A DNA stretch of 7,614 nucleotides from a virus (IMGVR_UViG_2585427735_000018:1-7614), one strand, 5' to 3'; shown: positions 5,084 to 6,299, counted from the first letter of the stretch. Made by a program: numbers and translations. The notes: generated by a model not told the origin, from the letters alone.

Positions 5084-5236
5084 GCGAAATTAACTAGAAG
5101 CCAAAGATAAAATCATCGCTGAGCAGGAGAAAATCGCTAACGGAGAAAAGACAGTAAGTCAGTATATGAAAACCGCATGATATCATCAGATAAAAATCGG
5201 TCGTAAAGCGAAATATTAATACCAGAACAAACGAGT

Positions 5237-5258
5237 CGAGGTAAATTATATTACCTCG
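5237..5258. terminator. Strong hairpin between convergent genes (possible bidirectional terminator)
   Basis: 8-bp stem CGAGGTAA(5237-5244)/TTACCTCG(5251-5258) with loop ATTATA, in the gap between the orf73 stop (5083) and the minus-strand ORF stop (5294). Flanks are A/T-rich but lack a clean T-run. Confidence 0.4.
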
Positions 5259-5293
5259 ATAAATTAACTAAAACTTGCCCGCTATATACTATA

Positions 5294-5896
5294 TCATTCA
5301 GTATCATCACGCGCGGTCTGTGCATATGTCACTACCGCACCTAATATATTAATTTTCTTTTCAACATAGATAATATTATCGTACTCATAATTGCCATACG
5401 GATAGCAAATGCGAATATTCTCATGTAGATCGGGGTCATCCACCTCAGCTCCAGAACAACTTTTTGAACTACCGGAAGTATACCGATACGGTGCAACATA
5501 AGACGATGTCTCTCCAGGCAAAAAATAAGTTAGTGTCGTAAGGGGTATAATCAGAAAAAATCCAGCAAATATGCACATCCCTGCATAAACCTTAAGGTAT
5601 GCTGACAGACTCTTCCAGCCTCTTTGTTTTACTATCCCCTTCTTAACCCAAAACAGAGATAACAGAAAAGCTATTCCCATGCTAAACAGAATGTAATAGT
5701 GGGATATACTCTGATTAAGAAACGTGACCCTGTAGATATCTGCCCGCCACCAGAAGAAAAGGAAAATAAAGATCAGCCCTGAAACTGTCATGCAAATCAA
5801 ATAAGGATACGAATCTTTTTTCATGTTTAGCGCCCATAAAATTTTTCCTGACCCGGACAAATTTACCATCCATTTTTTGCGCAGAAAATAGCTCAT
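5294..5896 (-). CDS. Hypothetical integral membrane protein (3 predicted TM helices plus a Cys-containing C-terminal domain)
   Basis: 200-aa ORF on the opposite strand to all phage genes. Hydrophobic segments YPYLICMTVSGLIFIFLFFWW, ISHYYILFSMGIAFLLSLFWV and YAGMCIFAGFFLIIPLTTLTYFL, then a hydrophilic tail of about 75 aa. AT-rich with 23% GC in places. Start uncertain (ATG at 5896, 5869 or 5824; none has a strong SD). Confidence 0.55.
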   Translation of the reverse strand: MSYFLRKKWMVNLSGSGKILWALNMKKDSYPYLICMTVSGLIFIFLFFWWRADIYRVTFLNQSISHYYILFSMGIAFLLSLFWVKKGIVKQRGWKSLSAYLKVYAGMCIFAGFFLIIPLTTLTYFLPGETSSYVAPYRYTSGSSKSCSGAEVDDPDLHENIRICYPYGNYEYDNIIYVEKKINILGAVVTYAQTARDDTE

Positions 5897-6068
5897 TACT
5901 TACTGCACAATAATACACAAAATTGCGTAAATTTTTTGCATGGATTTTAGCTCTTTCAGCCGACATTTAAGGGGTAAATAGCATTTCCTAAAAGCAACTG
6001 CACCAACCCAACAGAATGGGCTACCGCTTACGTTGAGAGCAAAAAAGTGTATAGCAGCAATGAACAGC

Positions 6069-6097
6069 ATCCTCGCACTGACGAGGATTTCTTTTAT
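6069..6097 (+). terminator. Candidate intrinsic terminator
   Basis: Stem ATCCTCG(6069-6075)/CGAGGAT(6082-6088) with loop CACTGA, followed by TTCTTTTAT. Confidence 0.5.
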
Positions 6098-6299
6098 CTG
6101 AACTCGCTACGGCGGGGTTTTTTTTTTTGGAGATGATAAATACACTTCCCAGTCACAGGTGAATGGAATGGAGAACCATTCAACAGAGTTATCGAAGCCG
6201 AGAACATCAGCGACTGCTATGACCACTGGATGCTGTGGGCGCAGATAGCACATGCAGACGTAACCAATATTCGAATTGAAGAACTGAAAGAACACCAAG

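Follow-up and report, generated by a model that had tools for sequence, protein, structure and literature searches.

The stretch analysed here, IMGVR_UViG_2585427735_000018:1-7614 (7,614 nucleotides; hereafter the window), covers the early-left part of a prophage of the lambda/434 type. The PL direction corresponds to its plus strand, along which gam, bet, exo, orf60a, orf63, orf73, a foreign block, an orf55 homologue, xis and int follow one another. The foreign block, an AT-rich segment with a single minus-strand gene for a small membrane protein, is the subject of this report (coordinates in Table 1). In a blastn alignment, lambda matches the window at 2282-5095 and 6069-7614 with 97-98% identity; the alignment ends at 5095 and resumes at 6069, so the block is what lies between. 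It displaces lambda positions 29356-30379, holding ea22 and ea8.5, and has a GC content of 0.381, compared with 0.499 for the DNA on its left and 0.459 for that on its right. A first-pass annotation, made from the sequence alone, had described a break in lambda homology after orf73 that closes again toward xis and a low-GC cargo cassette of about 1 kb in which a single gene for a membrane protein is inverted; these points agree with the alignments and composition given here, and the block is indeed a foreign unit, complete in itself, at a site where the cargo varies.

Over the interval 5084-6130 the window is 98.5% identical to phage 434, 98.6% to 2B8 and 99.5% to mEp332, and 824 of 5,426 complete Escherichia coli genomes (about 15%) match at least 80% of positions 4800-6400. 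The block is present in 5 of the 169 phage records matching the query, nearly all of them at the right end only. Given its near-identity to the three phages and its presence in these E. coli genomes, the block is, by alignment, a 434-type allele of a known variable site. At its left junction the five leading codons of ea22 (V-S-E-I-N) are kept at 5080-5094, followed at once by a stop codon. Near the right junction, the plus-strand translation TAYVESKKVYSSNEQ (6023-6067) resembles Ea8.5 residues 43-57 and may be an Ea8.5-like remnant, the match itself being non-significant (60% over 15 residues, E 0.34).

The longest open reading frame (ORF) of the block runs on the minus strand over 5294-5896 and encodes 200 amino acids (aa); no plus-strand ORF of at least 40 aa was found between orf73 and xis (5084-6346). 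The first-pass annotation had taken this frame as the gene. Frame and strand were right, but the start was set about 72 nt too far upstream. Beyond the near-identical copies from E. coli, Shigella and E. marmotae, every homologue has a start aligned with M25 (seen in Salmonella, Enterobacter, Klebsiella, Cedecea and Citrobacter), and a copy from an E. coli P2-like prophage carries an in-frame TAA 18 nt upstream of the M25-equivalent ATG. On the strength of this shared start and this stop codon we dropped the 200-aa reading and therefore place the gene at 5294-5824, with a product of 176 aa. The 24 upstream codons are probably untranslated leader or promoter DNA. Annotated starts of the 434, mEp332, 2B8 and phrog_1416 versions differ, giving 188, 200 or about 90 aa, and none of these entries carries a functional annotation.

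Several measures point to coding constraint. The ratio of non-synonymous to synonymous substitution rates (dN/dS) is 0.09-0.14 against copies with dS of 1.0-2.5, which indicates purifying selection, and third codon positions hold 16 of the 28 distinct substitutions among near-identical copies. Of 64 lambdoid loci in IMG/VR, 62 carry the gene intact, one carries it disrupted and one is cut by a contig end; among the 63 near-identical viral contigs of lambdoid type that hold the whole gene, 62 thus have it intact, and the disruption in near-identical prophages that the first-pass annotation had named as a sign against it is confined to one locus. By these substitution patterns, the minus-strand ORF is a real, constrained gene. 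It is also intact in the window, where the prophage is otherwise decaying (IS1 insertion, frameshifted int, lost orf55 start).

Hydrophobic segments lie at about residues 32-50, 64-84 and 103-127 (200-aa numbering) and are followed by an acidic C-terminal region. The loop between the second and third transmembrane (TM) segments contains six K/R and no D/E residues, and the C-terminal 65 residues are net acidic. From hydropathy, the positive second loop and the acidic C-terminus, the predicted topology is N-in, with loop 1 outside, loop 2 inside and the C-terminal domain in the periplasm. An AlphaFold2 model of the full-length protein (predicted local distance difference test, pLDDT, 84.8) consists of three long helices and a beta domain of five strands, with one further short strand in loop 1; modelled alone, the C-terminal domain reaches a pLDDT of 88.1 and is predicted to be a five-stranded barrel of oligonucleotide/oligosaccharide-binding (OB)-like type facing the periplasm. 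Two invariant cysteines, Cys147 and Cys164 (C123 and C140 in 176-aa numbering), flank the beta2-beta3 hairpin within the motif CSGAxVxDPxL...IRICYPxGxY, and a periplasmic disulfide between them is plausible. Mean pairwise identity is 64% in the periplasmic domain, the best-conserved long region of the protein, compared with 31-38% in TM2, the cytoplasmic loop and TM3. Hydropathy, charge and structural models thus concur with the three hydrophobic helices and Cys-bearing C-terminal domain noticed at the outset.

Searches of Pfam, NCBIfam and PDB (by sequence) gave no usable match, and no relative was found among the viral predicted structures of BFVD. The family is very small, with 61 representatives at 50% identity among 1.84 billion in an exhaustive profile search. 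A 3,074-aa match in the representative search (P0122) was rejected as homology: it reflects 12 repeats of a beta-hairpin motif of 21 residues, each of which scores 2-3 bits. The earlier statement that no family could be recognised holds for Pfam and NCBIfam, yet phrog_1416 matches residues 113-200, the C-terminal half in 200-aa numbering (E 7e-51), and a second entry exists in a catalogue of P2-like prophage cargo. The gpA-gpQ locus of P2-like phages (old/tin in P2) is a hotspot of anti-phage systems (PMC9122126). System #4 of this hotspot is a 181-aa "3 TM" protein with no Pfam family and 470 occurrences (PMC9122126, Table S5B); it is catalogued without a name, and its sequence stands only in the catalogue table and not among the tested constructs (PMC9122126). 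The window protein is 51% identical to it over 168 aa (E 2e-56). Full-length homology, similar size, three TM helices and the shared CSGAxVDDPDL...ICYPxGxY motif place system #4, phrog_1416 and the window protein in one family. The genomic settings differ: system #4 sits between gpA and gpQ of P2-like myoviruses, the window gene in the exo-xis region of a lambdoid siphovirus. Orthologues with 98.9-99.4% aa identity occupy that same place in phage 434 (CPT_434_36, "putative membrane protein", OL657226), mEp332 and 2B8.

Closer relatives, 71-79% identical, are also found in P2-like prophages and share the 115-bp upstream region with the window. All P2-like copies (14 IMG/VR, three Salmonella and one E. 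coli loci) lie between the portal gene and gpA. Compared with the E. coli P2-like copy, identity is 78% in the upstream stretch (-115 to -1), 78% in the coding sequence and 63% downstream, and it falls to 25-41%, the background level, beyond -116. The upstream 115 bp are therefore conserved to the same degree as the coding sequence, and what recurs in the unrelated P2-like lineage, at a validated defence hotspot (PMC9122126), is a promoter region together with its gene, which upholds the earlier view of a cargo cassette. With respect to close phages, the block is alternative DNA that replaces ea22 and ea8.5 rather than a pure insertion, and its base composition (GC 0.38) is unlike that of its neighbours (0.50 and 0.46). 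On this comparative evidence we take the block to be a moron in the Hendrix/Juhala sense (PMC3594210), a horizontally mobile unit of gene and candidate promoter that, in a lambdoid prophage of the 434 type, runs antisense within the PL operon.

Within the upstream stretch we recognize a candidate sigma-70 promoter with an extended -10 element, which would start transcription near 5853. Both hexamer regions are invariant across the lambdoid and P2-like copies, and TGnTAAnTT-like motifs occur at equal distance from the gene in the chromosomal copies of Cedecea and Citrobacter. The motif alone is not rare in the window (2 found versus 0.56 expected). Farther upstream lie three degenerate repeats in 10-bp phase. 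P2-like prophages have three clean ATTGTGCA(A/G) repeats here (in L005 and L013 at about 4895-4925), and one repeat unit is precisely deleted in a Salmonella locus (L004).

Outside the lambdoid and P2-like prophages, six Enterobacter species have a diverged homologue at a fixed chromosomal locus that is syntenic and not part of a prophage; a GGDEF gene lies on one side of it and a gene pair for a GGDEF-EAL protein and a 164-aa protein on the other. Klebsiella, Cedecea and Pseudescherichia also have homologues at fixed chromosomal loci with no phage genes nearby, the Klebsiella copies at other sites and the Cedecea and Pseudescherichia copies near yccA-tusE-like genes. In three Enterobacter loci (L010, L020 and L027) the homologue closely follows a LysR gene of the same orientation (gap of 16 bp in L010), which is divergent from a short-chain dehydrogenase gene (Pfam checked in L010 only). 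A homologous LysR gene is present in Pseudescherichia (L025) about 1 kb downstream of the homologue, past an unannotated 276-aa gene. Two further IMG/VR loci (L106 and L108) have 46-47% identical homologues just outside an integrase and HNH-protein pair, beside an MntR-like repressor gene; these may be prophage-edge cargo or adjacent host DNA. Every E. coli and Salmonella copy examined is prophage-borne.

We tentatively favour, as possible but somewhat short of probable, the reading that the gene encodes a lysogen-expressed exclusion or protection factor of the inner membrane, whose periplasmic domain blocks delivery of incoming phage genomes. Lying antisense in the PL operon, the gene should be expressed as long as PL is repressed and suffer interference when PL becomes active: in the lysogen, it would be transcribed from its own conserved extended -10 promoter, and after induction converging, antiterminated PL transcription would probably silence it. 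The 176-aa product would enter the inner membrane N-in through three TM helices and would present a compact periplasmic module composed of the loop-1 strand and the five-stranded OB-like barrel, probably stapled by the disulfide. On the periplasmic side of the inner membrane, this module would most likely bind either a conserved envelope component or the structure by which an incoming phage delivers its DNA. Genome entry would thereby be blocked, resulting in superinfection exclusion in the manner of P22 SieA or HK97 gp15.

Three known systems offer partial parallels. Lambda sieB (lambdap48) is likewise a gene inverted inside a lambdoid PL operon. SieB works through abortive infection and is not known to act at the periplasmic face. 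P22 SieA, a protein of the inner membrane with 162-164 aa and three predicted TM helices, is expressed from its own promoter and blocks DNA injection (PMC10883804). The window protein shares with it a size in the range of about 160-200 aa, a predicted three-TM inner-membrane architecture and a gene running against the flow of the neighbouring operon, together with expression from the prophage, a feature of SieA (PMC10883804) that is predicted here; this is a resemblance and not membership of the SieA family. SieA occurs in P22-like prophages only, where it is encoded between genes 16 and 9, and its conserved motif FxRYPxEAxxFNK is cytoplasmic, unlike the conserved domain of the 176-aa protein, which is predicted to be periplasmic; by inspection, the motif is not present in the 176-aa sequence. 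HK97 gp15 is a moron product, an inner-membrane protein expressed from the prophage, with non-prophage YebO homologues in Enterobacteriaceae (PMC3594210). It resembles our case as an AT-rich add-on with its own promoter and terminator (both only candidates here), and YebO parallels the Enterobacter and Klebsiella copies. However, gp15 has 62 aa, lacks a periplasmic domain and is encoded in the tail operon, co-oriented with it, so the two proteins are unrelated in size and architecture.

A number of observations weigh against an exclusion factor. Profile comparison with hhalign gave a probability of 0.2% for homology to P22 SieA (of the SieA types A-C, the type A protein) and 0.1% for homology to lambda/P22 SieB, and PADLOC-DB 2.0 returned 0 families at E ≤1. 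A simple consensus promoter scan of the window did not call the TTTTCT-17-TGgTAAATT promoter. In the literature on 434, mEp332, the exo-xis region, the P2 hotspot and superinfection exclusion, we found no tested phenotype for members of this family. A strongly conserved binding domain is not usual for an arms race with variable phage parts. Finally, the fixed chromosomal homologues of Enterobacter, Klebsiella, Cedecea and Pseudescherichia fit a cell-autonomous envelope function at least as well.

This last point underlies the rival that survives best, for the non-prophage homologues in several genera keep a role in host physiology possible. According to it, the protein is a host-envelope or fitness factor acting through lysogenic conversion, with no direct anti-phage role and an origin as a chromosomal envelope protein of Enterobacteriaceae. 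It might, for example, belong to a complex in the inner membrane as a small subunit that faces the periplasm and has a binding or regulatory task. Phages would have acquired it for the benefit to the lysogen, which would gain stress tolerance, envelope homeostasis or colonisation ability. The syntenic Enterobacter copies, three with a LysR gene directly upstream, and the fixed loci away from phage genes in the other three genera speak for such an origin; the absence of a match in the PADLOC defence database agrees with it, and highest conservation in the periplasmic domain is expected for a protein with a conserved host partner. Nevertheless, all E. coli and Salmonella copies examined are in prophages, the P2-like site is enriched for anti-phage cargo (PMC9122126), and a family so small and so patchy across genera is unlike a housekeeping component. 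We consider this explanation unlikely, though a serious contender.

The exclusion reading can also be extended. The family would then be a new, widespread class of envelope-level superinfection exclusion, its cassette swapped between lambdoid and P2-like prophages and either ancestral to the chromosomal loci or domesticated into them, with the periplasmic OB-like domain acting on a conserved host inner-membrane DNA-entry factor and so giving broad exclusion that is not specific to particular phages. We regard this wider proposal as doubtful.

Another rival keeps a protective role but changes the threat: the protein could be an orphan immunity protein against an envelope-acting toxin, such as a pore-forming or periplasm-acting colicin or an effector of contact-dependent inhibition (CDI) or the type VI secretion system (T6SS), rather than against phage. 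Small multi-TM inner-membrane proteins and membrane-anchored, disulfide-containing periplasmic domains are typical of immunity proteins (for example, pore-former colicin immunity proteins and Cmi). The predicted topology and invariant Cys pair resemble these, and the module consists of a single gene without a partner. We judge toxin immunity to be quite improbable.

A further alternative concerns regulation. The sequence TTGT-N6-TTGT at 5907-5920, inside the repeats, is labelled as a CII site in the curated 434 record, and its two half-sites are conserved in related copies; were it a genuine site, the gene and an exo-xis antisense RNA would be made only during establishment of lysogeny. Yet the CII consensus occurs in the window at chance frequency (3 found versus 1.95 expected), so the annotated site gains no statistical support as a sign of CII control, and the motif belongs to the 10-bp repeat conserved also in P2-like prophages. 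Phages of the P2 type are not known to carry a cII homologue. Moreover, counted from the conserved extended -10 element, the two half-sites fall at about -50 to -67 and not around -35. Given the chance frequency and the conservation of the repeats in P2-like phages, CII control of the gene is doubtful, and a CII-activated antisense unit seems highly improbable to us.

The least probable reading is an abortive-infection effector or toxic membrane protein (holin-, RexB- or SieB-like) that depolarises the cell upon infection: TM proteins in defence systems are often suicide effectors (PMC9122126) and the gene is inverted within the PL operon like lambda sieB, but it has no sensor partner and no similarity to SieB, its conserved part is the structured periplasmic domain with a putative disulfide rather than the helices, and it is stably and vertically carried in chromosomes.

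As an element the block is of no new type: it belongs, still uncharacterised, to the well-known prophage morons whose products are small inner-membrane proteins. The sequence of the gene and its annotation as a putative membrane protein have been available for years, and the family to which it belongs is already catalogued. What we add is a corrected gene model, exact module boundaries, a conserved candidate promoter region and a predicted fold and topology, along with the existence of chromosomal relatives and a connection from the exo-xis cargo site of lambdoid phages to the gpA-gpQ hotspot of P2. The gene deserves attention as a nameless one, without a Pfam family, in one of the oldest model phages, and a sister lineage ranks fourth by frequency among the genes that occupy the defence hotspot of P2. 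Should it prove to be an exclusion factor, it would add a periplasm-facing, OB-domain type to the inner-membrane Sie proteins and provide a clean case of cargo exchange between two unrelated prophage hotspots; should it be a host envelope factor, the Enterobacter and Klebsiella chromosomal copies would become the interesting part. Overall, it is a common gene and possibly a new type of Sie protein, with nothing mechanistically surprising.

Table 1. Features of the cargo region and its surroundings in the window.
Feature	Position	Strand	Basis or remarks
Non-lambda substitution block, 434-type	5096-6068 (973 bp)		blastn against lambda and phage 434; GC content
Mobile module common to P2-like prophages	about 5215-5940	minus	~115 bp upstream, gene, ~100 bp downstream
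Gene for 176-aa inner-membrane protein (predicted)	5294-5824	minus	conserved M25 start, ATG at 5824
24-codon N-terminal extension of longest ORF	5825-5896	minus	absent in homologues of other genera; overlaps predicted promoter
Candidate sigma-70 promoter	5860-5888	minus	TTTTCT (5888-5883), 17-nt spacer, extended -10 TGgTAAATT (5868-5860)
Three 10-bp-phased repeats, degenerate	5903-5932	minus	related to ATTGTGCA(A/G)
Hairpin with 9-bp stem	5236-5259	minus	35 nt past the stop codon, then CTCGTTTGTT; fold z = -2.7
56-aa ORF ("ORF-22+" of M60848; CPT_434_35)	5900-6070	minus	annotated in two 434 records
tL4 intrinsic terminator of PL-direction transcript	6069-6097	plus	lambda/434 backbone; hairpin 6069-6088 and T-tail
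Second terminator-like hairpin and T-run	6103-6128	plus	backbone DNA; hairpin 6103-6116
orf73, TraR/DksA-type	4862-5083	plus	
ea22 start remnant (GTG-S-E-I-N-stop), left junction	5080-5097	plus	GTG 5080, TAG 5095-5097

The first-pass annotation had bracketed the gene between a strong hairpin on its left (5237-5258) and a terminator plus an 11-T tract on its right, regarded as insulators. The left hairpin is real and lies just after the stop codon on the minus strand. The T-run following it is interrupted, and the hairpin sequence is not conserved in the P2-like copies; the hairpin may be a weak intrinsic terminator of the gene and is listed as a candidate. The right-hand elements are a different matter. 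The 6069-6088 hairpin is annotated as t-L4 in the 434 record M60848, and both right-hand hairpins are terminator-like on the plus strand only and lie within lambda-homologous DNA, upstream of the 5' end of the gene, so that orientation and lambda homology rule them out as cassette insulators and leave the gene's own transcript unshielded. They are predicted to stop unmodified PL-direction transcripts after these have passed antisense over the cassette. The 11-T tract (6118-6128) is a private variant of the window: the position reads GGGTTTTGTTTTATGG in 434, lambda and another E. coli prophage, and T11 is uninterrupted here only.

The 56-aa ORF upstream of the gene was considered as a second cassette gene and rejected. 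It is frameshifted in 4 of the 63 near-identical loci by two independent 1-bp deletions, with the downstream gene intact, and its substitutions comprise no synonymous and three non-synonymous changes. The P2-like module lacks it, the Prokaryotic Genome Annotation Pipeline (PGAP) does not call it, and the ATG with which it would start is part of the tL4 hairpin.

Rfam and tRNA scans of the window gave no match. Toward its left end, an IS1 copy (insB ORF 45-548) borders on an ORF for a Ser/Thr protein kinase that lacks its N-terminus (602-1438; segment 563-1438), which matches Pkinase (E 2e-34), phrog_2361 and PD-T4-6/mad6-like entries of PADLOC. Related prophages carry the full-length kinase. 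The IS1 junction is absent from the complete E. coli genomes in the collection, where matches begin at 564. Lambda cIII and nearly all of kil are absent from window positions 1441-2281, lambda homology starting only at 2282; in related E. coli prophages a "phage encoded cell division inhibitor protein" is annotated between the kinase gene and gam.

At the right end, int (6543-7614) has a 1-bp insertion relative to lambda at about 6863, which leaves a fragment of 112 aa and a separate ORF of 230 aa; the integrase is therefore a pseudogene and the prophage probably immobile. The orf55 (lambdap35) homologue at 6140-6307 encodes a 93% identical protein, and its start codon is ATA, compared with ATG in 434, lambda and another E. 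coli prophage.

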